64,000 bases of DNA. Origin: Parcubacteria group bacterium Gr01-1014_29. GTDB lineage: Bacteria > Patescibacteriota > Minisyncoccia > Ryanbacterales > 2-02-FULL-48-12. The translations under genes and the position numbers were made by a program. Below are positions 1,157 to 42,587 of the stretch, piece after piece; position 1 is the first letter of the stretch; each line of letters begins with the position of its first letter. The notes beneath the pieces are model-generated. The model was not told the DNA's origin, searched no databases, and saw nothing but the letters and a program-made list of their open reading frames with translations. Location of the stretch: NCBI GenBank assembly GCA_007376195.1, contig VMFT01000002.1:1273-65272 (forward strand), in the 5' to 3' direction.

Positions 1157-1795
1157 ATGATACACTATTGTCATACTATGAAAAGTAAGAATAATCTTCT
1201 AGAACAGCTCAAATCCTTACCCCATTTCGGGAAGAATACTGTATATCAGCTTGGCAAACAGTTGGGGCTCAAGGACTCTACGGTTAATACCTACATTAGC
1301 CGTTTTTTGAAGTACAAAGAAATTATCCAGCTCAGGAGAGGGTTGTATGTGTCTGCTGATTTTTTTGATAAAAATAGGAACGATGTTTCCTATTCATTCT
1401 ATCTTGCCAATGTCATTCGAACGCCGTCATATATCAGTTCGTGGGCGGCGCTTCAGTATTACAACCTTGCTACGGAGGCGATCCACTCTGTCACCTCGGT
1501 CACACCTAAAGTGACAAAAGAATACCAGACAAAGGCCGGTAATTTCGCATATCAGTCAATCAGCAAAAATTTTTTCGCAGACTTTTCTTTGGCAAAAGGA
1601 AAGTTTGATTTCTATATAGCTTCTCCCTCCAAAGCATTGTTTGATTTGCTCTATTTGAGGACCCGTCAGTTCAATAACCTTTCAGTAGAACAGATAAAAG
1701 CAATGGTTTCAGAATTAAGGATAGACATTGATGAAATGAGTAAGGAAGAGCAGGATAAATTTTATTCAATGATTAATAAATACTCCCATGAGTGA
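1157..1795 (+). CDS. AbiEi-family antitoxin / wHTH transcriptional regulator (type IV TA)
   Basis: N-terminal winged-helix region with the ...RLRRGLY... motif typical of AbiEi. The 3' end overlaps the next gene by 8 nt. Start could instead be the internal Met at 1178. Confidence 0.55.
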   Translation: MIHYCHTMKSKNNLLEQLKSLPHFGKNTVYQLGKQLGLKDSTVNTYISRFLKYKEIIQLRRGLYVSADFFDKNRNDVSYSFYLANVIRTPSYISSWAALQYYNLATEAIHSVTSVTPKVTKEYQTKAGNFAYQSISKNFFADFSLAKGKFDFYIASPSKALFDLLYLRTRQFNNLSVEQIKAMVSELRIDIDEMSKEEQDKFYSMINKYSHE

Positions 1796-3071
1796 ACAGA
1801 TTTCAACAATTCTAAAACGTAAGCTTGATGATCTTGCCGCCTACGGCAGTCTTGATGCGGAAACGCGCCGTAATGCTCTGAAAGGAGAGTTGCAGTTTTA
1901 TGTTCTCAATTTCATTTACCATCACCCGGAATACAACGCGTGGATCATGTATGGCGGTTCGGCACTTCGTATTATCCATGAGCTTGACCGCATGTCAGTT
2001 GACTTGGATTTTGAGATTTCTCATGCGGTAACGGAGAAGTTTTTAGAGGAATTGAAAAAAGAAGTTGAGGATTACTTCACTAATACCTTTGGCGCGGGAG
2101 CTGATTTTCTTACGATAAAAATAATCACCGGTAGAGGTCTGCTCTTGAAGTTCCACGTTGGTGAAGAGCTAAGCTCCGGACACCCCTCAAAGCAGGTGCA
2201 TGTAAAAATTGATCTCAATCACTTTGTCGCTCCCAAGACTGTCACTGAACGTCGGCCGATAAACCGCAATCAGTTATCCTTTGTGATCATCACCTACAAT
2301 ATGTCCTCGCTTATGGCGAGCAAGCTTGCCGCTATTTTCCTCCGTGGTACCCGTGGCGTGGGAGAAGCAACTTACGAGGAAAAAGGACGCGATATTTATG
2401 ATCTCCTTTGGTACATGAATAAAAAAGTAGTGCCAGACTTCGATTACCTCATAGCCAAAGGCATTGACGCGAAAGACCCTCGCGCGCTTTTCGATAAACT
2501 CACGCTTCAGATCAACAAAGTGAGCGATAAAAATCTTGAGCAGGACCTTGAGCCTCTGTTTGTGGATAAGACGTATATTAGAAATTTGCTCAAGAACTGG
2601 CGAGAGAGCTATCTACGACTTTTGGATGAATATAAAATTCGCAACATTAAAGAACTCGAGAGTATTGGTATACATCAGGACTTTCGCACAGATACTTTTT
2701 CTTTCGTGTATTGGTATACGACGGAGGACGGCGGATCGATCAGGGTTGTTTATAACCTAAGCGAGTACTGGATTATATTCGGCGAGGGTAATTTGCAGGT
2801 TGAAATAGATAAGAAACTGGAAGAGAGGATGGATTTCAGGAGCAACAGGGTTAGCAGTCGTCCGACTTCGCAGGATAGGCTTAAGCAGTACGCGACCCTG
2901 TTTTATCAGAAAACGGAAAAGTACTTCAAGAAAACGAATCGGATCATGCTCGGGGACAGCATTATCACTAAGATTATTCGGATAACGGCCGATAATTTGA
3001 ACCAGAAGGAACAGATCGTGCTTAATAAGTCGGCACTGCTTTCTTGTGAGCTTGATGACTTACTGAAATAA
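1788..3071 (+). CDS. AbiEii/AbiGii-family nucleotidyltransferase toxin (DUF1814) with about 130-aa C-terminal extension
   Basis: Motif MYGGSALRIIHELDRMSVDLDFE matches the GG(T/S)ALR...S.DlDF nucleotidyltransferase signature of AbiEii. Translationally coupled to AbiEi. Confidence 0.6.
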   Translation: MSEQISTILKRKLDDLAAYGSLDAETRRNALKGELQFYVLNFIYHHPEYNAWIMYGGSALRIIHELDRMSVDLDFEISHAVTEKFLEELKKEVEDYFTNTFGAGADFLTIKIITGRGLLLKFHVGEELSSGHPSKQVHVKIDLNHFVAPKTVTERRPINRNQLSFVIITYNMSSLMASKLAAIFLRGTRGVGEATYEEKGRDIYDLLWYMNKKVVPDFDYLIAKGIDAKDPRALFDKLTLQINKVSDKNLEQDLEPLFVDKTYIRNLLKNWRESYLRLLDEYKIRNIKELESIGIHQDFRTDTFSFVYWYTTEDGGSIRVVYNLSEYWIIFGEGNLQVEIDKKLEERMDFRSNRVSSRPTSQDRLKQYATLFYQKTEKYFKKTNRIMLGDSIITKIIRITADNLNQKEQIVLNKSALLSCELDDLLK

Positions 3072-3817: not shown

Positions 3818-4070
3818 GGTTCACCTCGCGTTTGTCAGATTTGTTCTTGATATAGCATACGGAAATATTTTTGTAAATGTCAACAAAGGGAGTTGACATT
3901 ATATTTATAAAATGTTAGCACTGGAAATGGTATAGAAGCAAAAATCAAGCTCTTTGACATATACAACTAGGACTTACGTGTTTGTGTATATTCTGGCTTT
4001 TTCTTTTCTGTCATTCTCGCGCAGGCGGGAATCCAGGACATTGTCAGTAATAGAAAAGGAGTGATTGGAA

Positions 4071-4889
4071 ATGAGCACAGCAAGGACACGCAAAGCAACA
4101 CACCAGGGTTCTAAACATCTCCAGCTTGGGTTTAATAACCAGGACGGGGTACTTTTGGAGTCTTTCAATATACCGGCTTTTGGGAAACAATATACCGTTG
4201 GCATCGTATGTGACGGCTGTACTGGGCTTCCTGGGTTTAGTAAAACCGAGGTCGGCGCGAGTATTTTGCCGGTTTTTGCGTTCGGACGGTGTCAAGAGTT
4301 CTTGTGCGCCGGTCTTCCGCTCGCGGATATACCGATGGTACTGTTTCAATCATGCACAGAATTCTTGCGCGATTTGGCGCAGAAGGTTATGCCCGGAAAT
4401 ATTTATTGGGGATATTCGGAAGTGTTGAGCACCGCTTTGGCAAAACTCAAAACGGGTCGCAAGGGTTGGGACAGTACTACACGCTTTCGCATCGACTATC
4501 TTTCGGCGACGCTGCTTGGTTTCGTTACAGACGAAACGCAATTAGTTACGTTTACGGCTGGCGACGGCATCGTGCTGGTAAACGATGACATTCGCGTTAT
4601 TGACCAGGACGACAAACCAGAATATCCGGCGTCTTCGATCAACAGCCCGGGAAAGGGATTTGACGTACATGTCTTGAGTCTCTCCGAAGTGCAGAGAGTT
4701 GCCATTTGTTCGGATGGGTTAAAGGAACTTATGCAGGACCAAAAGTTTGTGGACCAGATGTTTTCGTTCAGTCCCGGACTGTTCGGATTGCAGATTCTCC
4801 TTAACAATACCTACAGCGAACGTGATCACCTTATGGAGGATGATTGTACGGCGGTTACATTCGAAAGGAGCGATGAGCCATGTACCTAG
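4071..4889 (+). CDS. PP2C-family Ser/Thr protein phosphatase
   Basis: PP2C metal-binding motifs: NQD, GIVCDGCTG (xxDGxGG-like), CSDGL, DDCTAV. Strong RBS aaaaggag 9 nt upstream of the ATG at 4071; the ORF track starts at TTG 4065. Confidence 0.6.
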   Translation: MSTARTRKATHQGSKHLQLGFNNQDGVLLESFNIPAFGKQYTVGIVCDGCTGLPGFSKTEVGASILPVFAFGRCQEFLCAGLPLADIPMVLFQSCTEFLRDLAQKVMPGNIYWGYSEVLSTALAKLKTGRKGWDSTTRFRIDYLSATLLGFVTDETQLVTFTAGDGIVLVNDDIRVIDQDDKPEYPASSINSPGKGFDVHVLSLSEVQRVAICSDGLKELMQDQKFVDQMFSFSPGLFGLQILLNNTYSERDHLMEDDCTAVTFERSDEPCT

Positions 4890-6844
4890 TGAATGGCAAG
4901 AAATATGATGAAGATCCAAGCCGCAAACTTGGTGGCGGGTCTGAAGGTTCGGTGTATCCATTCGACGGCGACCCGGATAATACATGCGTCAAACTTTGGC
5001 ATCCAGTTGATCCGAAAGATCGTTCCGGACAGCAGATTGCGTTATACCGTGCAAAGAAAGTAAAAGCTGTTACGGGTCTTAACCTTCATTTGCCAGAACA
5101 GTTCATTCTCCCAAAACTTCCCGCACAAGACGGTAAGGGAAATATTATTGGCTATCTCATGCGACGCGTGCCGAAAGAGTATGTCAAGTTGATGAAGTTG
5201 CTTCAGCCAGCGTTTCGAACCAACAATTCGATTGGGTTGAAAGATATTGCGTTGTTGTACGCTTTTTTCTTCGAGGACTTGGAGGTACTTCAGAAGAATA
5301 GTATCTCGGTGGGGGACGTAAATCTTGGCGGCAACATGGTGAGATTCACCTCGAAAGGGATTGAGCGCGTATGGGTGGATACCGATAGTTGGAGCTATCC
5401 AGGATTTCCCTGTCTCGCTACAACGGAAATGTTCTGTCATCCGGATTTGTATGCAAACCTTGGGTCTGGTGGCAAATTTGTGCCGCCTATGCACAAGCAT
5501 GACTGCTTTGCATTCGAGGTGGAATTTTGTCTGCTGGCTCTGCCGGGAGCTCACCCATTTCGAATGGGGTTGCATCCGAGCGTTACCAGTCTTCAGGAGC
5601 GCGCAGAGGCGGGGATTACCATTTTCGATTCTAGTGTAGCTTATCCAAAGTACTTGCCATCTCCAGATGTGCTAAGTGATGAGTTGCTTCACGAACTTAT
5701 TCTCCGGTTGAAGCGGAAAAAGGAGGAACCGCTTCCTGCCAAACTGCTTCGGGATTTTGCCGAACAGTTGGTCGTATGCGCGAAGTGCAGCGAGCAGTAT
5801 CATCGCTCGCGTTCAAATTGTCCGAAGTGTCAGGAGAAAACCATAGTCGATCTAAAGAAATTGATCGAGCTCATAATCCAAGAAGTCTATGCCGCTTCGG
5901 AAGCGATTTTATACACGCAAGTTGTCGACAGTACACTTTTTGTGGTTTGTCGAGTTAGCGGGATGATACACATCGTAACTATTGATGAGAAAGGAGGTGT
6001 AGATACACTTGTAACTTTCATTTCAGCTCTCCGTGGTATGCGGTACCGATTCTTTGGATCACACCTGGTTGTGTGTCCTGATGTGTACGCTGATGCGCCC
6101 GTGCCGATTCAGATTTATAGGATTACAGGTAGCACGTTGCAGATGGTGCAGAATATAACAACCAACGGTCTCGAAAACGAGTCGGCGGTATTCGATGTGT
6201 CGTCACGGTTCATGTACCGTACGGCGGGCAACACTCTCCTGTGCGGGAAATGGATGTTTGGCGGCAAGGTCTTTGGTGAAGATCCTGTTACACAGGTGCA
6301 TCAAACGCAGAGCTGGTTTACTGTGGATCGCACATCCGGATTAGATCGGGAAGCGATATTCGGTTATGACCGTGCTCTTCGCGATATGCAATGGTTTGTT
6401 GTGAAGGGAGACAAGGCCGGAGAGAAGTTCGATTTTCACAACGTTACTCTTCCTGCAATGCGCGCGGGGGAAAGACTGGAAGATTTTGCAGTGGATTTCG
6501 GTGCGGATGCTGTGCTGTTGGTGCGGCAAACCCTTTATCAAGGCCGTCAATATATTCGGTATTCCATCATTGCTCTTAACGGGGTTGTGGTGGAAGATCG
6601 TGTGTTGAGGAGCGGAGATAATGGGTATGACGCATGGGAGAGTATTCACGGCAAATTGTTCCAAAAATCGAGCATTCTTCATGTAACTCCCTTGGGCGTC
6701 GTAAAACAGACGCTCCTGAACAATGCCTATGAACTTGTGGAGGATACGCGCGGTGTGGTGACGGCGGAGGATTGGCTGTTTCGGTTCAACAAGAGTGTCG
6801 GCATTGCACGACGTGGTGCCGTGCTGACAATGAGAAAAAAGTAA
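4880..6844 (+). CDS. atypical Ser/Thr protein kinase-like protein with internal Cys4 zinc ribbon and large C-terminal domain
   Basis: Gly-loop LGGGSEGSVY, Lys in VKLW, catalytic-loop-like SVGDVNLGGN, DFG-like VDTDSW, zinc ribbon CAKCSEQYHRSRSNCPKCQ. Overlaps the PP2C stop by 10 nt; RBS aaaggag. Confidence 0.55.
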   Translation: MYLVNGKKYDEDPSRKLGGGSEGSVYPFDGDPDNTCVKLWHPVDPKDRSGQQIALYRAKKVKAVTGLNLHLPEQFILPKLPAQDGKGNIIGYLMRRVPKEYVKLMKLLQPAFRTNNSIGLKDIALLYAFFFEDLEVLQKNSISVGDVNLGGNMVRFTSKGIERVWVDTDSWSYPGFPCLATTEMFCHPDLYANLGSGGKFVPPMHKHDCFAFEVEFCLLALPGAHPFRMGLHPSVTSLQERAEAGITIFDSSVAYPKYLPSPDVLSDELLHELILRLKRKKEEPLPAKLLRDFAEQLVVCAKCSEQYHRSRSNCPKCQEKTIVDLKKLIELIIQEVYAASEAILYTQVVDSTLFVVCRVSGMIHIVTIDEKGGVDTLVTFISALRGMRYRFFGSHLVVCPDVYADAPVPIQIYRITGSTLQMVQNITTNGLENESAVFDVSSRFMYRTAGNTLLCGKWMFGGKVFGEDPVTQVHQTQSWFTVDRTSGLDREAIFGYDRALRDMQWFVVKGDKAGEKFDFHNVTLPAMRAGERLEDFAVDFGADAVLLVRQTLYQGRQYIRYSIIALNGVVVEDRVLRSGDNGYDAWESIHGKLFQKSSILHVTPLGVVKQTLLNNAYELVEDTRGVVTAEDWLFRFNKSVGIARRGAVLTMRKK

Positions 6845-6871: not shown

Positions 6872-7945
6872 ATGACTACTGTCAAAATTGCGGCACACAT
6901 GCCGCTTCTCTACACGCCCAAGTTCTGGGCTCCGGCGAAAGCTTATGAGAACTACACGCCGGATATCGAGGGGGCCAAGCTCGAAGGCGCTGAATACGCT
7001 CGTAAGCATGGTCTCGAGCCTGCGTTCAGACTGTTGGAGCGGCCGGAGGGTGCCAGTATGGCATTTCTTACAGACTTACAACAGGACTTCCGTGATCATG
7101 GAAGATTGCCGGTTACTGGTACGGATGATGTTGTCCTTCGATGTGCCTCGCGCCTCATCAATGGATTTATTTCCGGCCATTATGCGGGGCTGAAACGTTC
7201 TAAGGATGGGCATCCGCCGGTGCATGTTTCGTTTGGCACATACTTTCGAACGCAAACAGGGGAGTTGTTCGATCTGCGGACACGCAAAGCATCTATCCTT
7301 GCGTTGGAAGATGATAAAAAGTGTATTTTCAAGGCTACATGTTTCGATCCGAGTGATGGTTCTCCCGTCGACGCGGGATACATTCAGCCCATGTACAAGC
7401 CACATGAATGTGTGGCATACAACCATTATCTGGAAAGTACAGGACAAGCACCGCAGTGGGCATTTGCCCAGCATTGTGAACTTGGTACGGACGGCGAATC
7501 GTTCCATCCGCTCATTGTCGAGGCAGTTGCTTTCGCGAGCGGGTTACGGAGCTTTGTTCCGGGACTGGTTAGCAAGGGGCATATCATGGAGTGGGATTGG
7601 TATGGCCCGCTCTGTTCGTGCGGAGGATATTCGGAGGATCCAAACATTGTGCCGGTAATTACCCACCCGCAAGGTGGGTTCCAGAAAGACATTGTCGATG
7701 GGTTCAAACCCTTTCGGAGTGTCGAATTCTTTGGGGTCGCGGAAGACTTCTGCGATTATTGGATGAAGAAGCAGAGCCGGTGGTATTTCAGAGGAACGGA
7801 GTTTCTCAAAAAGATGGTATTCGTCGAAGATGGCACTGCACCCATCGTCCCGAATGCCCAGCATGTGAAGACCCAGAATGCTGAAGCGAGGGCCGAAGGC
7901 GTGAAGTTCATTAAGCACGATACACCTTTCGCGCAATCGCTGTAG
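6872..7945 (+). CDS. isochorismatase-family cysteine hydrolase, nicotinamidase (PncA)-like, with about 100-aa internal insertion
   Basis: AFLTDLQQDF..G.LPV.G.DDVV...RLI aligns to PncA ALLLVDLQNDF...LAVPEGD...RLI. FHPL, the catalytic-Cys region GVAEDFCDYW (cf. GLATDYCV) and VFVEDG (cf. VITDG) are all present. RBS gaaaggag. Confidence 0.5.
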   Translation: MTTVKIAAHMPLLYTPKFWAPAKAYENYTPDIEGAKLEGAEYARKHGLEPAFRLLERPEGASMAFLTDLQQDFRDHGRLPVTGTDDVVLRCASRLINGFISGHYAGLKRSKDGHPPVHVSFGTYFRTQTGELFDLRTRKASILALEDDKKCIFKATCFDPSDGSPVDAGYIQPMYKPHECVAYNHYLESTGQAPQWAFAQHCELGTDGESFHPLIVEAVAFASGLRSFVPGLVSKGHIMEWDWYGPLCSCGGYSEDPNIVPVITHPQGGFQKDIVDGFKPFRSVEFFGVAEDFCDYWMKKQSRWYFRGTEFLKKMVFVEDGTAPIVPNAQHVKTQNAEARAEGVKFIKHDTPFAQSL

Positions 7946-8029
7946 AGAAGTGCATCATCGGAGGCGGTGACTCTCATTGCACCGCCCCCAATTTTTCATC
8001 AACAACCAAACAGTCAAAGGAGAAAATCC

Positions 8030-8905
8030 ATGCCAACAAAATCAGTTGACCCAACAATCGCGGCATTCTTCAAAGATCCTGATGCGAGCAGTGTTGTGGG
8101 ACTTAAGGCATCTCAAATCGTTGCGCCGATCGTGCGCGGCGAAGACGTGAGGCCGGAAGAGCTTATGATGGGTGGCGGCTTGCGCATTGTCCAGTTTGTA
8201 CTCGATCGTTCTCCGAGCATGGAGCCGGTGGGCAACATGCTTCGGGAGGACTTCAACACAGAGTTCGTACCGGCGGTGAAAGAGGCACGCGAGGATGATA
8301 TCAGTGTTCTGCGTATCGGCGGCACGTCGTTTTCAACCGACATCGAGCCGATTTGGAAGGGAAAAGGTTTATCCGGAGTCACTGAATATTATCATTCCAT
8401 CGATAATCTTCCAGCACTTACTCGCGCTGAATACGATCCGGAGAGAGGCTACACAACGGCACTTCATGATGCTATCCTCGACGGTACGGCACGTGCTCTG
8501 AAGTTTGCCGCGGACCAACAGCAAAAGACAGGTACGGCGCCTGATGTGGATGTGATTGTCTTAACTGACGGAGCCAATAACTGTAACCCCAGAGATCCTG
8601 CGGTAGTGAAAGATATGGTTGTGGGCGCAAACAAACGGCGAGTGCGGTTTATCTTCTTCTACTTCGAAACAGGTGACGGTCTCGAAAACCCGAAAGACTA
8701 TGCCGTTAGTGAGCTAGGTTTTGACGGTGAGAATGTCATGGAGTTCAAACAGGGGCCAGGCGAAACGAAGGAAGAACGCCGCAAGCGTTTCCGGCGCATG
8801 ATGCGGGTGATGAGCAGGGTCTCGGCATCCAAAGGCATGAGCGCTGTTCAAGCGGCCGCGACGCAACAAGTTGCCACCGCAACTGATGACGAAGATCTTG
8901 TCTAA
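8030..8905 (+). CDS. von Willebrand factor type A (vWA) domain protein, TerY-like
   Basis: MIDAS motifs DRSPSM (DxSxS), TALHDAI (Thr) and VIVLTDGANN (D). RBS caaaggag 8 nt upstream of the ATG at 8030. Confidence 0.6.
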   Translation: MPTKSVDPTIAAFFKDPDASSVVGLKASQIVAPIVRGEDVRPEELMMGGGLRIVQFVLDRSPSMEPVGNMLREDFNTEFVPAVKEAREDDISVLRIGGTSFSTDIEPIWKGKGLSGVTEYYHSIDNLPALTRAEYDPERGYTTALHDAILDGTARALKFAADQQQKTGTAPDVDVIVLTDGANNCNPRDPAVVKDMVVGANKRRVRFIFFYFETGDGLENPKDYAVSELGFDGENVMEFKQGPGETKEERRKRFRRMMRVMSRVSASKGMSAVQAAATQQVATATDDEDLV

Positions 8906-8917
8906 AGGAGTAGGACA

Positions 8918-9157
8918 ATGGCTTCTTTAATACAGCTCACCATGCTTGCTGAACTTACAGTAAAAGAAGTGAAAGCAAGCAAACTTCCTCTGGAGGAAGT
9001 TGATCTTGTGGAAGTCGCGGCTATCCTCATTCACGCAAAGCACCTTGATGGAAATACTGAGGGTCAGGCCGAGGTGAGTACGGAAGGGTGGCCGGATGTG
9101 TCCCTCGCATGGAAATCCCGTTATAGAAACCTTGCGAGACAGTTCTTTCAAAAGTAA
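8918..9157 (+). CDS. hypothetical small acidic protein (79 aa), last gene of the operon
   Basis: RBS taaaggag; 12 nt after the vWA stop; followed by a terminator. Confidence 0.4.
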   Translation: MASLIQLTMLAELTVKEVKASKLPLEEVDLVEVAAILIHAKHLDGNTEGQAEVSTEGWPDVSLAWKSRYRNLARQFFQK

Positions 9158-9172
9158 GCAGTTCATTTACCG

Positions 9173-9198
9173 GACCTCCCGAGAGGTCCGTTTTTATT
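9173..9198 (+). terminator. rho-independent terminator
   Basis: ggacctcccgagaggtcc hairpin followed by gtttttatttg. Confidence 0.5.
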
Positions 9199-9547
9199 TG
9201 GCATCCTTGCTAGATCAGTAGTTATATGATAAAAACCCGGAGGTTATTTTCAAGAGCGACGCGTTTGAGGGCCGCGAGCACGAGATCATCGGAAAGGAAT
9301 ATGCAAAGAGAATTAAAATTGTCCGCGATGTTGTGGACCATTCGTCCACAACGGAAATTTTAAGAGAAGCATCAAAACGACCTTATTGAGTTGGCGTGAT
9401 ATCAACGGTGAAACATCACATACACTAGGCATATGATCCCACTTTGAGCAGTGGGATTTTTTTCGTCGTAATATTCCATTCAATAACTGTTCGTTGTTTT
9501 TTAATCATTAGTTTTCTATTATTGTGATATGTCATACTGGTATTTCC

Positions 9548-9670: not shown

Positions 9671-10267
9671 ATGAACAAAATTTTTCGTCATTTTCTTGAT
9701 CGCTCGCTTTCGCATGTGGTGCGCTTTAACAGCACTCCTCAGCAGTTTGGGGAATCAGTGGCGGAGCACTCGTTTTATGTTGCATATTTCACAAGCATTT
9801 TGATTTACTTTTTGCGCGAGGCAGGGGAAGAGGTGGACGAGGCGCGCGCGTTAAAAATTGCCCTTCTGCATGATGCGGAAGAGAAATTTAGCGGCGATAT
9901 TCTTACGCCGTTTAAGCATTACAACGAGGATGTGTTGCGCGCGATTCGCAAGGTAAATCAGGAGACGATCTCGTTTGTGTTTGAAGATTTACCTCCGGAT
10001 TTAAGCGCGGAATTTATCGCGTTGTGGAACGAAGATGTTAATCTTACAACCAAAGAAGCACAGATTGTCAAAACTGCCGACAAGGTATCTCTCCTCGCAA
10101 AATGTTACGAAGAAATTAAGATCGGCAACGAATTTTTCCTCCCTATTTATGAACGGGAACTGGGAAGACTCTCCGCGCTTTCATGGCCGTGGTGGCGAAA
10201 GATCAAAAAGCATATCCTTCCCCACCGCCGGACTCCCATACCGCTTCCGGTGGACCATTTGCATTAA
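9671..10267 (+). CDS. HD-domain phosphohydrolase, YfbR-like 5'-deoxynucleotidase
   Basis: SVAEHSFYVAY ... ALLHDAEEKFSGDI match the HD motif and YfbR-like context. Confidence 0.55.
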   Translation: MNKIFRHFLDRSLSHVVRFNSTPQQFGESVAEHSFYVAYFTSILIYFLREAGEEVDEARALKIALLHDAEEKFSGDILTPFKHYNEDVLRAIRKVNQETISFVFEDLPPDLSAEFIALWNEDVNLTTKEAQIVKTADKVSLLAKCYEEIKIGNEFFLPIYERELGRLSALSWPWWRKIKKHILPHRRTPIPLPVDHLH

Positions 10268-11180: not shown

Positions 11181-11672
11181 ATGGTAGTCATTGTTGTCAA
11201 AGATAATCGTCCGTTGAAGTTCGCGGTTGCTGTTGTAATTAGAAGTATAGATCGGAAAATGCTTTTTGTTGTACAACGGCCTCCCGACGATGATGAGTTT
11301 CCCGACATGTGGGGATTGCCTTCCGCAAGTGCGAAGCGTGGTGAGCTTCCCGAAGAAGTTGTGCGGCGCATTGGACGCGAAAAGCTCAATGTAGAACTCA
11401 CGCCGAATTGGTTTCTTGGCGTAAAATATGCCGAGCGAACTAATTACAAACTCATCTTGATGGATATGTGCGCTGACATTGCGGAAGGTGCTCTGAATGT
11501 CCGAATTGCAAACGTTCGCAACCGCGCAGTACCTGGTACAAAGTATGTTGACTGGCGGTGGGTGGAGGGTCTGGACATTCTCAAAGAAGCCGCGTCGCGC
11601 GGTTCCATCTGTTCGCAGATTCTTCTGGAGTATGAAGGTGTGGACTACCCAGACAAGAGGCACTTTAATTGA
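11181..11672 (+). CDS. Nudix-like hydrolase (degenerate Nudix box)
   Basis: GLPSASAKRGELPEEVVRRIGREKLNV approximates the Nudix box Gx5Ex7REuxEExGu. Confidence 0.35.
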   Translation: MVVIVVKDNRPLKFAVAVVIRSIDRKMLFVVQRPPDDDEFPDMWGLPSASAKRGELPEEVVRRIGREKLNVELTPNWFLGVKYAERTNYKLILMDMCADIAEGALNVRIANVRNRAVPGTKYVDWRWVEGLDILKEAASRGSICSQILLEYEGVDYPDKRHFN

Positions 11673-11772: not shown

Positions 11773-12993
11773 TTATCTATGAGGGTTGGTTCGGGGCGCG
11801 CGGTTGGTTCTTACGAATGGGCGCGGGCCGCCGCTTCGAGGTGAGAAACTGCGCTGTGTCGGCCAGCTGGCGGATTGCTGATGTCTGCTTGTGCGCCCGC
11901 GCGGACGGGGGCGCATTACTTTTTGAAGCGCCAGGAGCTCTTCCGAGACGCTCTCGTGGCGTTTTACCAGAAGTGTTTTACGGATAAGGCGCTCAATAGC
12001 GCGAATTTCTCCTTGCTGGTCGGGGGTGGCCAGAGATATTGCCTTACCCTCCCTACCCGCGCGGCCCGTGCGCCCGATGCGGTGCACGTAGTCTTCAGAG
12101 CTTTCGGGTATGTCAAAATTTACCACTAACTCAATATTGACGACGTTGATGCCACGCGCGGCTATGTCAGTAGCCACAAGCACGCGATATTTTCCTTTTT
12201 TGAACCCTTCCAGCGCTTCACGGCGCTGGCCCATTGTTTTGTTTGAGTGTATTTCTACAGCACGTTCCCCAATGTCGCGGAGGTGCCGCGCGAGCTTTGA
12301 TGCGCCATGTTTTGTGCGCGAGAATATCAGAATGGTGCCCGCATGTTCCCGGAGAAGCGTTTCAAGGAGGGAAATTTTTGACTCCTTTTTTACTATATAT
12401 ATTTCCTGCTCTGTCGCTTCTATGGTGGTGCCCGCGGGCGCGACCTCAACTCGTACAGGGAGCGTCATGTGACGTGTGGCAATGGATACGATGGTATCCG
12501 GCATGGTTGCAGAAAACAGCATGGTTTGGCGCTTGCCTGGCTCCGGCAAGGCTTCAAAGATGATGCGTATTTGCGGAGCAAAGCCCATGTCAAACATGCG
12601 GTCGGCTTCGTCAAGAACCAGAATGGTTATGTTGCCAAGCGAGACAGTTTTTTCTCCAAGATGGTCAATGAGACGTCCGGGAGTCGCGATAATAATGTGA
12701 GGGCCTTGCCGCAGCTGGTCAATTTGACGCGGCATGGATTCGCCTCCTATGAGTACTGCGGTGCGAAGTCCCAGCGGATGCCCGATTTTCTGAAGCATAT
12801 CGTTTACTTGCAAGGCAAGTTCGCGCGTGGGGAGCACCACGAGCCCGCGTGCGCGGTGCTCTGCGATGCGTTGAATCATAGGTATGCCGAAGGCAAGGGT
12901 CTTGCCGGTGCCGGTCTGCGCGATGCCGATAATGTCTTTTCCTTCGATTGCCGCAGGAATAGATTGGTGTTGAATGGGGGTTTCTTGTGTCAT
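11773..12993 (-). CDS. DEAD-box ATP-dependent RNA helicase with RG-rich C-terminal tail
   Basis: Motifs AQTGTGKT, PTRELA, DEAD, SAT and HRIGRTGRAG. Start taken at the Met preceding TQETPIQ; the ORF track extends to 13077. Confidence 0.75.
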   Translation of the reverse strand: MTQETPIQHQSIPAAIEGKDIIGIAQTGTGKTLAFGIPMIQRIAEHRARGLVVLPTRELALQVNDMLQKIGHPLGLRTAVLIGGESMPRQIDQLRQGPHIIIATPGRLIDHLGEKTVSLGNITILVLDEADRMFDMGFAPQIRIIFEALPEPGKRQTMLFSATMPDTIVSIATRHMTLPVRVEVAPAGTTIEATEQEIYIVKKESKISLLETLLREHAGTILIFSRTKHGASKLARHLRDIGERAVEIHSNKTMGQRREALEGFKKGKYRVLVATDIAARGINVVNIELVVNFDIPESSEDYVHRIGRTGRAGREGKAISLATPDQQGEIRAIERLIRKTLLVKRHESVSEELLALQKVMRPRPRGRTSRHQQSASWPTQRSFSPRSGGPRPFVRTNRAPRTNPHR

Positions 12994-42293: not shown

Positions 42294-42587
42294 TTAGTGC
42301 CGTCGTGGTACAACATGTCGGTAATCAAATGAGCTGTCTAAGCTACTGTTTACATCCCCGCACATGTTACATACACCAACACCAAGGCGTACCGTGACTT
42401 TTGTGTCAGCACGACACTTCGGTACACACCAGAATTCCACATAGTCATGGTCGCAGGTAAAGCGCTGGAACGTTATCACCAAACGTCGTAACATACAAAA
42501 CAGCGATACCCGTTTTACACTGACATGCGGGATCCTGCGGAATAGTACTTCTGTTGCCATTATTCGTCTCCTTTCGGTTTTCTTCAT
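42294..42587 (-). CDS. hypothetical protein with Cys motif
   Basis: ORF only. Confidence 0.3.
   Translation of the reverse strand: MKKTERRRIMATEVLFRRIPHVSVKRVSLFCMLRRLVITFQRFTCDHDYVEFWCVPKCRADTKVTVRLGVGVCNMCGDVNSSLDSSFDYRHVVPRRH

Follow-up and report, generated by a model that had tools for sequence, protein, structure and literature searches.

The open reading frame (ORF) at positions 6872-7945 of a 64,000-nucleotide stretch of contig VMFT01000002.1 from Parcubacteria group bacterium Gr01-1014_29, the whole of which is called the window here, most likely encodes a nicotinamidase-type member of the isochorismatase superfamily, judging from its family profile and its predicted structure. The explanation that accounts best for this protein, referred to as the target, and for the genes around it, and one to which we give a somewhat better than even chance, is that it is a catalytically competent, metal-dependent, long-form nicotinamidase that acts in Preiss-Handler salvage of nicotinamide adenine dinucleotide (NAD) and is encoded within an operon for a TerY-P-type switch. 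The target is placed in a long-form branch of the superfamily that had not been characterised before and is found mainly in Patescibacteria, the Candidate Phyla Radiation (CPR). A first-pass annotation, made from the sequence alone, had called it a divergent PncA/isochorismatase-like hydrolase with an Asp-Lys-Cys framework, and the results described below bear out that call.

The ORF is intact, with 357 codons and an ATG that lies 8 nt 3' of an AGGAG, and all the motifs that had been quoted for it were found in its product, namely, AFLTDLQQDF at residues 64-73, DHGRLPVTGTDDVVLRCASRLI at 75-96, FHPL at 211-214, CSCGG at 248-252, GVAEDFCDYW at 288-297, and VFVEDG at 316-321. An identical protein is recorded as a hypothetical protein of the Parcubacteria-group metagenome-assembled genome Gr01-1014_29, and some records of the Joint Genome Institute (JGI) name members of the family "nicotinamidase-related amidase". 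About 60 full-length homologs of the target were found that are 340-365 aa long, have 45-85% identity and are metagenomic almost throughout. Since there are this many full-length homologs of similar length, the architecture of about 350 residues is conserved and is not an assembly artefact.

When the single target sequence was compared with the Protein Data Bank (PDB) by phmmer, only marginal matches to nicotinamidases were obtained (E=0.07-0.27), and therefore a family profile was needed for this search. The profile was made from a family alignment of 36 target homologs (A1), and with it five solved nicotinamidases were found, 2wt9 (E=1.7e-9), 29iv (1.1e-8), 1ilw (5e-5), 2h0r (1.4e-4), and 3pl1 (5.9e-3), besides which nothing else in the PDB was significant. 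When 1.84 billion representatives were scanned exhaustively with HMMER, 28 clusters had E<=1e-30, and at the looser limit of E<=1e-10 there were 162. Three intermediate proteins, P0179, P0180, and P0200, match the family profile at E values from 3.5e-18 to 3e-15 and they also match the Pfam family PF00857 at 4e-10, 1e-5, and 2e-9, respectively. Because these proteins match both, the target family is tied to the isochorismatase superfamily by transitive homology, and this homology is visible only by way of the family profile, the bridging proteins, and the structure.

The active site was mapped by comparison with PncA of Mycobacterium tuberculosis. Alignment of the family with this single sequence by hhalign covered 23 N-terminal columns only, and multi-segment HMMER alignments were used instead. 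In these alignments the catalytic triad D68, K235, and C294 corresponds to D8, K96, and C138 of M. tuberculosis PncA, and the triad positions also align with those of 3pl1, 2wt9, and 2h0r. The metal ligands D112, H114, H118, and H201 correspond to D49, H51, H57, and H71; C202, which adjoins H201, corresponds to C72; H212-P213 is the HP motif H82-P83, and K235-G236 is K96-G97. The triad and the four metal ligands are invariant across the 36 homologs and so are C202, C250, and H212, of which C202 and H212 have counterparts in canonical PncA, namely, the HC and HP of 3pl1 and 2wt9. FHPL, which had been taken as the Lys block, is the HP motif that lies N-terminal to the Lys, and the catalytic Lys, K235, sits in SKGH. 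The possibility that the target is a pseudo-enzyme was rejected because every catalytic and metal residue is invariant. A metal site made up of one Asp and three His separates nicotinamidases from other isochorismatase-like hydrolases, which are not known to have it.

Structure prediction, which had been proposed as a check, gave the same answer. The AlphaFold2 (AF2) model of the target, which was built on A1, has a predicted local distance difference test score (pLDDT) of 93.1 and a predicted template modelling score (pTM) of 0.91, and the protein as modelled has the three-layer alpha/beta fold of the isochorismatase type. When the model was compared with the PDB by Foldseek, ranks 1 to 11 were all nicotinamidases (E from 6e-10 to 2e-7), and the target-normalised template modelling score (TM) was 0.68-0.80 in ten of these and 0.45 for the Drosophila enzyme.

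The target is longer than M. tuberculosis PncA (186 aa) by 60 residues at the N-terminus, 69 between H118 and H201, 9 between H201 and K235, 17 between K235 and C294, and 15 at the C-terminus. Thus, the excess is mainly in the first two of these places and not, as had been claimed, in an insertion of about 100 residues between the Lys and Cys regions. The N-terminal extension is conserved family-wide, with invariant P16, K23, A24, G39, and L54. The main insertion has, according to DSSP, strands at residues 125-127, 140-147, 152-158, and 165-173 and a helix at 177-189; it lies N-terminal to the catalytic Lys and is flanked by the metal motifs DGHxxxH and WxFxxHC. It is kept in two members of the family that are encoded without the partner genes described below and is shortened in distant members that have them, for example, P0154. 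A further insertion of nine residues, GYSEDPNIV, follows directly after the invariant C250, is carried in A1 only by the window protein and its closest relative, P0003, and coincides with the lowest confidence of the model (pLDDT 72-78). The string CSCGG, to which attention had been drawn, is present, but it arises from C248-S-C250 plus this insertion, and it is not a family motif since C250 alone is invariant and the rest is clade-specific; it was therefore rejected as a functional Cys motif. Some family members have an additional N-terminal domain of about 230 residues fused to the PncA-like enzyme. These are P0028, P0035, and P0042 (563-582 aa), P0130, P0132, P0139, and P0144, with loci L006 (5907-7598) and L011 (9218-11008) as cases of the fusion. 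The conserved blocks of this domain are GKKPEDFL..LTDDP and YFTVHLRE..SGDGYTYD..GNRGVMEYIVPNKP; no sequence match to it was found in Pfam or the PDB, and no separate gene for it in other loci.

The extra parts bear on whether the target is an amidohydrolase with a different substrate, such as a nicotinamide-containing nucleotide fragment, a heteroaromatic amide, or a carbamoyl or ureido compound, which would be the output of the kinase/vWA module encoded next to it, the linkage to NAD being secondary. About 170 extra residues, including the beta-rich subdomain beside the metal site, and the fact that Pfam does not recognise the target would fit such an enzyme, but the four metal ligands are invariant and align with those of M. 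tuberculosis PncA. N-carbamoylsarcosine amidase, biuret hydrolase, and RutB do appear at the lower Foldseek ranks (E>=4e-5), whereas the 11 best structural matches are nicotinamidases. Similarly, the invariant C202, C250, and H212 are not all explained, although C202 and H212 have their canonical PncA counterparts. In addition, a stand-alone member at locus L015 occupies the exact pncA slot of a Preiss-Handler operon. Because of the complete nicotinamidase metal site and this pncA-slot context, we consider a non-nicotinamide amidase unlikely.

The target gene is the third of four co-directional genes that encode, in this order, a PP2C-type phosphatase, a kinase-like protein, the PncA-like protein, and a von Willebrand factor A (vWA) protein (Table 1). 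The operon context had been described as unusual, and the kinase-like gene does lie 5' and the vWA gene 3' of the target gene, on the same strand and close by. Translational coupling to these two genes had also been claimed; the proximity stands but the coupling was not confirmed: only the PP2C and kinase genes overlap (by 10 nt), the gap from the kinase stop to the PncA-like start is 27 nt, that from the PncA-like gene to the vWA gene is 21 nt from a GTG start or, more likely, 84 nt from ATG 8030, and the PncA-like and vWA genes have a separate ribosome-binding site each. ATG 8030, with an AGGAG 8 nt 5' of it, is likely the true start of the vWA gene and would give a protein of 291 aa. The metal ion-dependent adhesion site (MIDAS) of the vWA protein, D80-x-S82-x-S84, T164, and D201, is invariant in 9 orthologs, and vWA orthologs are found 3' of the PncA-like gene in 13 loci. 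For the PP2C gene an alternative start is ATG 4071, which is preceded by AGGAG. Its product has the invariant acidic metal-binding motifs D27, D50-G51, D167-G168, D217-G218, and D259-D260; 11 loci have an ortholog of it in the same place in the gene order, and there is also one in L019.

The kinase-like protein did not match any Pfam kinase family and gave only sub-threshold matches in a sequence search of the PDB, for example, the minimal kinase HopBF1 (E=0.1), which was the best such match of its Gly-loop region. Its fold was assigned by structure prediction. The AF2 model (pLDDT 90.8) has a kinase fold at about residues 1-290, a C4 zinc ribbon (C300, C303, C314, and C317), and a beta-propeller at about 330-654. 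By Foldseek, the N-terminus resembles the kinase domains of ASK1, ErbB4, and DCLK1 (TM 0.56-0.64) and the C-terminus the clathrin terminal domain and WD40 propellers (E about 1e-8). The Gly-loop residues G18, G20, and G23, K38, D146, N148, D167, and the four Cys (CxxC...CPxC, 300-317) are invariant, and the catalytic loop (residues 145-150) is atypical in that it has an invariant G-D146-V/I-N148-x-G in place of HRDxxxxN. A triad of vWA, PP2C, and STK-Zn ribbon is known as TerY-P (Anantharaman, Iyer and Aravind 2012, as summarised in PMC11090510).

Table 1. Positions in the window of the target gene, its parts, its operon partners and neighbouring features
Feature	Position	Strand	Basis or details
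Protein in antitoxin (AbiEi) position, 212 aa	1157-1795	+	no Pfam match
AbiEii-type nucleotidyltransferase toxin, 427 aa	1788-3071	+	PF08843 E=1.9e-20
Perfect palindrome AATGTCAAC-N7-GTTGACATT, 9-bp arms	3876..3900	.	about 170-190 nt 5' of first cassette gene
PP2C-type Ser/Thr phosphatase, first cassette gene, 274 aa from TTG 4065	4065..4889	+	PF13672 PP2C_2 E=1.9e-8, above cut-off
Kinase-fold / zinc ribbon / beta-propeller protein, 654 aa	4880..6844	+	AF2, Foldseek, conserved residues
Predicted long-form nicotinamidase (PncA-like) gene	6872..7945	+	357 aa; catalytic D68, K235, C294; metal ligands D112, H114, H118, H201
N-terminal extension, residues 1-60, mostly helical, absent from canonical PncA	6872..7051	+	model, alignment
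Main insertion, about residues 122-195, beta-rich subdomain	7235..7456	+	DSSP of model; PncA spacing +69
Clade-specific 9-residue insertion, about residues 252-260, GYSEDPNIV	7625..7651	+	alignment A1
vWA-domain protein, complete MIDAS	7967..8905	+	PF00092 E=1.2e-3, below cut-off
79-aa ORF, 13 nt 3' of vWA stop, before terminator	8918..9157	+	ORF list; closest relative L007
Intrinsic-terminator-like hairpin 9171-9190 (8 bp, 6 G-C), then T-run	9171..9200	+	sequence
YfbR-like HD-domain 5'-deoxynucleotidase, 3' of operon	9671-10267	+	PF12917 E=2.4e-33
Small NUDIX hydrolase without NrtR-type DNA-binding domain, 3' of operon	11181-11672	+	PF00293 E=1e-4

The four-gene linkage is conserved. The order PP2C, kinase, PncA-like, vWA was found in every locus with sufficient flanking DNA (L001, L002, L004, L006-L009, and L011-L013) and partly in L016, and it persists in the divergent relatives L017-L021, whose proteins match the profile at E values as weak as about 1e-21, are 311-334 aa long and have a shorter insert. 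Partner genes are present in 17 of the 19 assessable loci, the exceptions being L014 and L015, which have the enzyme alone. The kinase family, which comprises 69 proteins that are all about 650 aa long, shares contigs with the PncA-like family. When a single genome was scanned for each of 185,579 species, 10 loci were found, almost exclusively in Patescibacteria; since the scan relied on exact peptide patterns this count is a lower bound.

Among the relatives of the target the neighbouring genes point to NAD salvage. In L015, from Paceibacterota, the stand-alone PncA-like gene is divergent from nrtR-nadE-nadD-pncB, there is no kinase cassette, and the PncA-like gene is the sole candidate for the pncA step of this Preiss-Handler operon. 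In L013 nrtR, the four-gene cassette, nadD, and pncB are on a single strand; in L009 pncB and nrtR are 3' of the cassette, in L012 pncB is divergent from the PP2C gene, and in L016 nadD and pncB are downstream. The cassette of L006 lies between nadE and a gene for a nicotinate phosphoribosyltransferase (NAPRTase)-like protein, and a longer sister contig adds nrtR and a nadD-like gene beyond nadE. In L011 (Peribacteria) the nrtR homolog 3' of the cassette (12192-12776) is split into the adjacent ORFs 12192-12473 and 12504-12776, which points to a frameshift, a pseudogene, or an error of assembly.

Known NrtR regulons include nrtR-pncA-pncB-nadD-nadE in Clostridium acetobutylicum and nrtR-nadD<>pncA-pncB-nadE in Pseudomonas, and NrtR, most of whose sites have a GT-N7-AC core, responds to ADP-ribose (PMC2330246). 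A 21-bp palindrome with this core, TTAGTGTA-N5-TACACTAA, was found in the loci of the relatives. With at most one mismatch, 8 sites were observed in 221 kb of non-redundant loci where 0.4 were expected, and none of 40 shuffled controls had more than 2. All 8 lie 5' of nadE, of nrtR, of the stand-alone PncA-like gene (in the gap between nrtR and the enzyme gene), or of the first gene of the cassette; those linked to the cassette are 120-190 nt 5' of its first gene in L001, L006, L011 (two), and L013. From the position of these sites the whole cassette, including the signalling genes, is predicted to belong to the NAD regulon in those lineages. Because relatives of the target adjoin nrtR, pncB, nadD, and nadE and are preceded by an NrtR-type palindrome, we read the target as a Preiss-Handler nicotinamidase, and it is probably the housekeeping enzyme of salvage and more than an accessory to signalling. 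The first-pass annotation had overlooked this context of the relatives as well as the metal site, the PP2C gene that completes the TerY-P-like triad, and the zinc ribbon and beta-propeller of the kinase-like protein.

We propose that the target would carry out the nicotinamidase reaction, nicotinamide + H2O -> nicotinate + NH3, and that the nicotinate would feed PncB, NadD, and NadE, a route on which these reduced-genome organisms presumably depend. In many lineages the gene would be under the control of the ADP-ribose-responsive repressor NrtR. From the near-obligatory co-encoding we infer that the triad either controls the enzyme post-translationally or uses it as an input, and we favour a phospho- and MIDAS-dependent switch on the activity or assembly of the enzyme. 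The kinase would phosphorylate the nicotinamidase and/or the vWA protein, the vWA MIDAS and the propeller would keep the complex assembled in a phospho- or metal-dependent manner, and the PP2C would reset the switch; in this way the flux through salvage would depend on a signal, which may be NAD consumption, metal status, host contact, or infection. The more specific proposal, that a TerY-P-type switch under an ADP-ribose-sensing repressor is dedicated to the nicotinamidase and either gates the first step of recycling or has the enzyme report nicotinamide to the kinase, is put forward tentatively, since we hold it to be possible with the odds against it. An arrangement that we consider a good deal more doubtful is that the enzyme is the sensor, in which case binding or turnover of nicotinamide, or metal occupancy, would be read by the propeller or the vWA protein and would control a kinase whose substrates are elsewhere. 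The gene does have the kinase gene on one side and the vWA gene on the other, it co-varies with these two over large evolutionary distances, and TerY-P triads, which have been proposed to be metal-sensing phospho-switches (PMC11090510), would here include an enzyme with a metal site. However, the fully conserved catalytic triad favours turnover over mere binding, and the enzyme of L014 and L015, which stands alone, does without the triad.

Several points weigh against reading the target as a salvage nicotinamidase under such a switch. The target did not match any Pfam family at E<=1, and hence not PF00857, a result that had been named beforehand as one that would refute the hydrolase call. The missing match does not refute that call because the bridging proteins, which match the family at E of about 1e-15 to 1e-18, do match PF00857 and because the isochorismatase fold was found. 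The PncA equivalog model of NCBIfam matched residues 65-131 only (E=6.4e-6), and its score of 26 bits is far under the equivalog cut-off of 174 bits. The large insert and the N-terminal extension could reshape the pocket toward another pyridine or amide substrate. The main insertion is not a docking module specific to the triad because stand-alone members have it too. Kinase activity is only putative because the catalytic loop is atypical (GDVN, without the conserved Asn at D+5), and action of the kinase on the nicotinamidase is hypothetical. Finally, in the 64 kb of the window no NAD-salvage gene, no nrtR, and no NrtR-type operator were found, and the same is true of L002, L004, and L008. For the window, therefore, the NAD-regulon argument is transferred from the relatives, and NrtR would control the operon in this genome only if the argument carries over. 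One site in the window with a single mismatch to the NrtR-type palindrome, at 42402, was dismissed because it is at chance level.

Depletion and reconstitution of NAD are central to phage-bacterium conflicts. This role of NAD in immunity raises the question whether the operon is an anti-phage or conflict system in which a nicotinamidase, as the effector under the control of a TerY-P-like sensor triad, changes the pool of nicotinamide and NAD during infection. Such an effector could break down the nicotinamide on which phages depend for rebuilding NAD, or it could speed up the recovery of host NAD after an NADase response. There are reports of TerY-P-like modules that act against phages on their own or serve as accessories to restriction systems (PMC11090510 citing Gao 2020), and the architecture of the partners fits that description. 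However, the PP2C, kinase-like, and PncA-like proteins had no match to PADLOC models at E<=1, the best match of the vWA protein was to PD-T4-10_B at E=0.021, which is not meaningful, and in PHROGs, where the target was again without a match, there was only one vWA match, of unknown function. Because there was no match to a PADLOC defence model, we call the cassette TerY-P-like in architecture only and not a member. An AbiEii toxin/antitoxin pair lies immediately 5' in the window, and distant relatives of the target are found on megaplasmids and in a 462-kb uncultured phage; on the other hand, the genes nearby have housekeeping functions (tRNA synthetases, Mur ligases, and folD) and do not form defence islands, and the distribution in CPR looks lineage-wide and not sporadic. 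Since NrtR senses ADP-ribose, a product of NAD cleavage, the operon would be induced upon NAD consumption, but the same cassette is embedded in pncB/nadD/nadE/nrtR operons. On this evidence we rate an anti-phage role as improbable and retain a salvage nicotinamidase as the preferred explanation.

The AbiEii gene and the gene 5' of it overlap, and the pair (1157-3071) looks like a type IV toxin-antitoxin or abortive-infection pair. Between it and the cassette is the palindrome AATGTCAAC-N7-GTTGACATT, which overlaps -35-like TTGACA hexamers and is distinct from the NrtR-type motif. A related palindrome, AATGTCAAG-N..-CTTGACTT, is found 5' of the cassette in the closest relative, which is 79% identical (L007, 7010-7034). 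The palindrome of the window is a candidate operator or promoter element of the operon; it may belong to a different regulator, or it may simply be overlapping -35 boxes. In cassettes from Saccharimonadia a conserved leader of about 110 nt was found 5' of the PP2C gene (L001, about 5040-5163; L002, about 5050-5172; L008, about 7000-7122). It reads ATTTCATTGTA...CATCAGTAGCAC...GACTCA..GAG.GGG..CCCTTTTT...TTAACAAGT.GGTTCA-ATG and has a GGG/CCC hairpin followed by a T-run, and it is possibly an attenuator or a riboswitch-like element; Rfam searches gave no family for this leader and none for the operon region of the window. At the 3' end of the cassette, the 79-aa ORF has a conserved counterpart in the closest relative alone (L007, 12036-12269, E=5.7e-27) and is possibly a clade-specific fifth gene, and the terminator-like hairpin after it is the probable end of the operon. 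Farther 3' the window has genes for ribonucleotide reductase, a type IV pilus ATPase, and the EF-G/EF-Tu/SecY ribosomal region.

Remote relatives, which are annotated as 'cysteine hydrolase' or 'hypothetical protein' and have about 30% identity to the distant cassette member P0154, are on megaplasmids of 0.8-1.3 Mb. Examples are L022 (Variovorax sp. WDL1 plasmid 2, 651489-666328) and L023 (an 882-kb plasmid of Vibrio parahaemolyticus), both without the triad. The Variovorax copy has as neighbours two NUDIX genes, a macro-domain gene, a gene with a nucleoside 2-deoxyribosyltransferase domain, and an NAD kinase gene, which is a neighbourhood of ADP-ribose and NAD turnover. The uncultured 462-kb phage LR756500.1 encodes a distant nicotinamidase-like protein at 73747-74550 on the minus strand (22% identity, 80% query coverage, E=7e-6), which may be relevant to NAD reconstitution by phages.

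The enzymatic class is not new since the JGI labels already name a nicotinamidase-related amidase. What is apparently new, within the searchable literature, is the long architecture that escapes Pfam and the conservation of a nicotinamidase inside a TerY-P-like triad within NAD regulons. Our literature search gave no paper that combines TerY-P with a nicotinamidase; the original TerY-P paper of 2012 (PMC4104200) was outside this search and may mention it. If the assignment is right, the long-form enzyme is the pncA step of NAD salvage in CPR/Patescibacteria, and because annotation based on Pfam misses it, metabolic reconstructions of host-dependent CPR would be wrong in counting nicotinamide salvage as absent. 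For TerY-P triads, a near-obligatory embedded enzyme offers a tractable entry, since a likely client is encoded in the operon and the enzymatic read-out is easy. The arrangement suggests a tie between NAD turnover, through the ADP-ribose sensed by NrtR, and Ser/Thr signalling. A switch dedicated to the nicotinamidase, if it is true, would add a new layer to the regulation of NAD homeostasis and would give TerY-P triads their first concrete metabolic client, and it would possibly connect salvage in these host-dependent, ultra-small bacteria with infection or with stress that consumes NAD.

In comparison with the PncA/Pnc1 nicotinamidases (PDB 2wt9/2wta, 1ilw/1im5, 3pl1, 2h0r/3v8e, 3r2j, and 3o9x; PF00857), the target has the same alpha/beta fold, triad, and metal site and the common motifs D-x-H-x3-H-x-S-F, W-x-x-HC, H-P, K-G, and (A/V)-x-D-x-C, and its relatives share the genomic partners pncB, nadD, nadE, and nrtR. 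It differs in having 357 aa as against 180-235 aa, with an extra helical N-terminus, an insert of about 69 residues, and about 17 more residues between Lys and Cys, in being undetectable with PF00857, and in being nearly always encoded between kinase and vWA genes. The cassette is like TerY-P in that a vWA protein with an intact MIDAS, a PP2C, and a kinase-fold protein with a zinc ribbon after the kinase fold are encoded on one strand. Unlike TerY-P, it has a nicotinamidase gene between the kinase and vWA genes, the kinase bears an extra C-terminal beta-propeller, the order is PP2C, kinase, (PncA), vWA, and the context is NAD salvage and housekeeping and not tellurite-resistance, restriction, or CoCoNuT loci. 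With the NrtR salvage operons (PMC2330246) the relatives share the gene set, the divergent or serial layouts, and a 21-bp palindrome with GT-N7-AC 5' of regulated genes, whereas their pncA slot is filled by the long-form enzyme, mostly with three signalling genes inside the predicted regulon, and the window locus itself has neither nrtR nor the operator. The Drosophila nicotinamidase NAAM (PDB 9u8m, a chain of 327 residues; Foldseek E=9.7e-8) is likewise a nicotinamidase core with extra sequence. Because it superimposes poorly on the target (TM 0.42-0.45, root mean square deviation 14 A) and the identity is 12%, the extra parts of the two proteins appear to be unrelated, and it looks as if the nicotinamidase core was lengthened independently in each.

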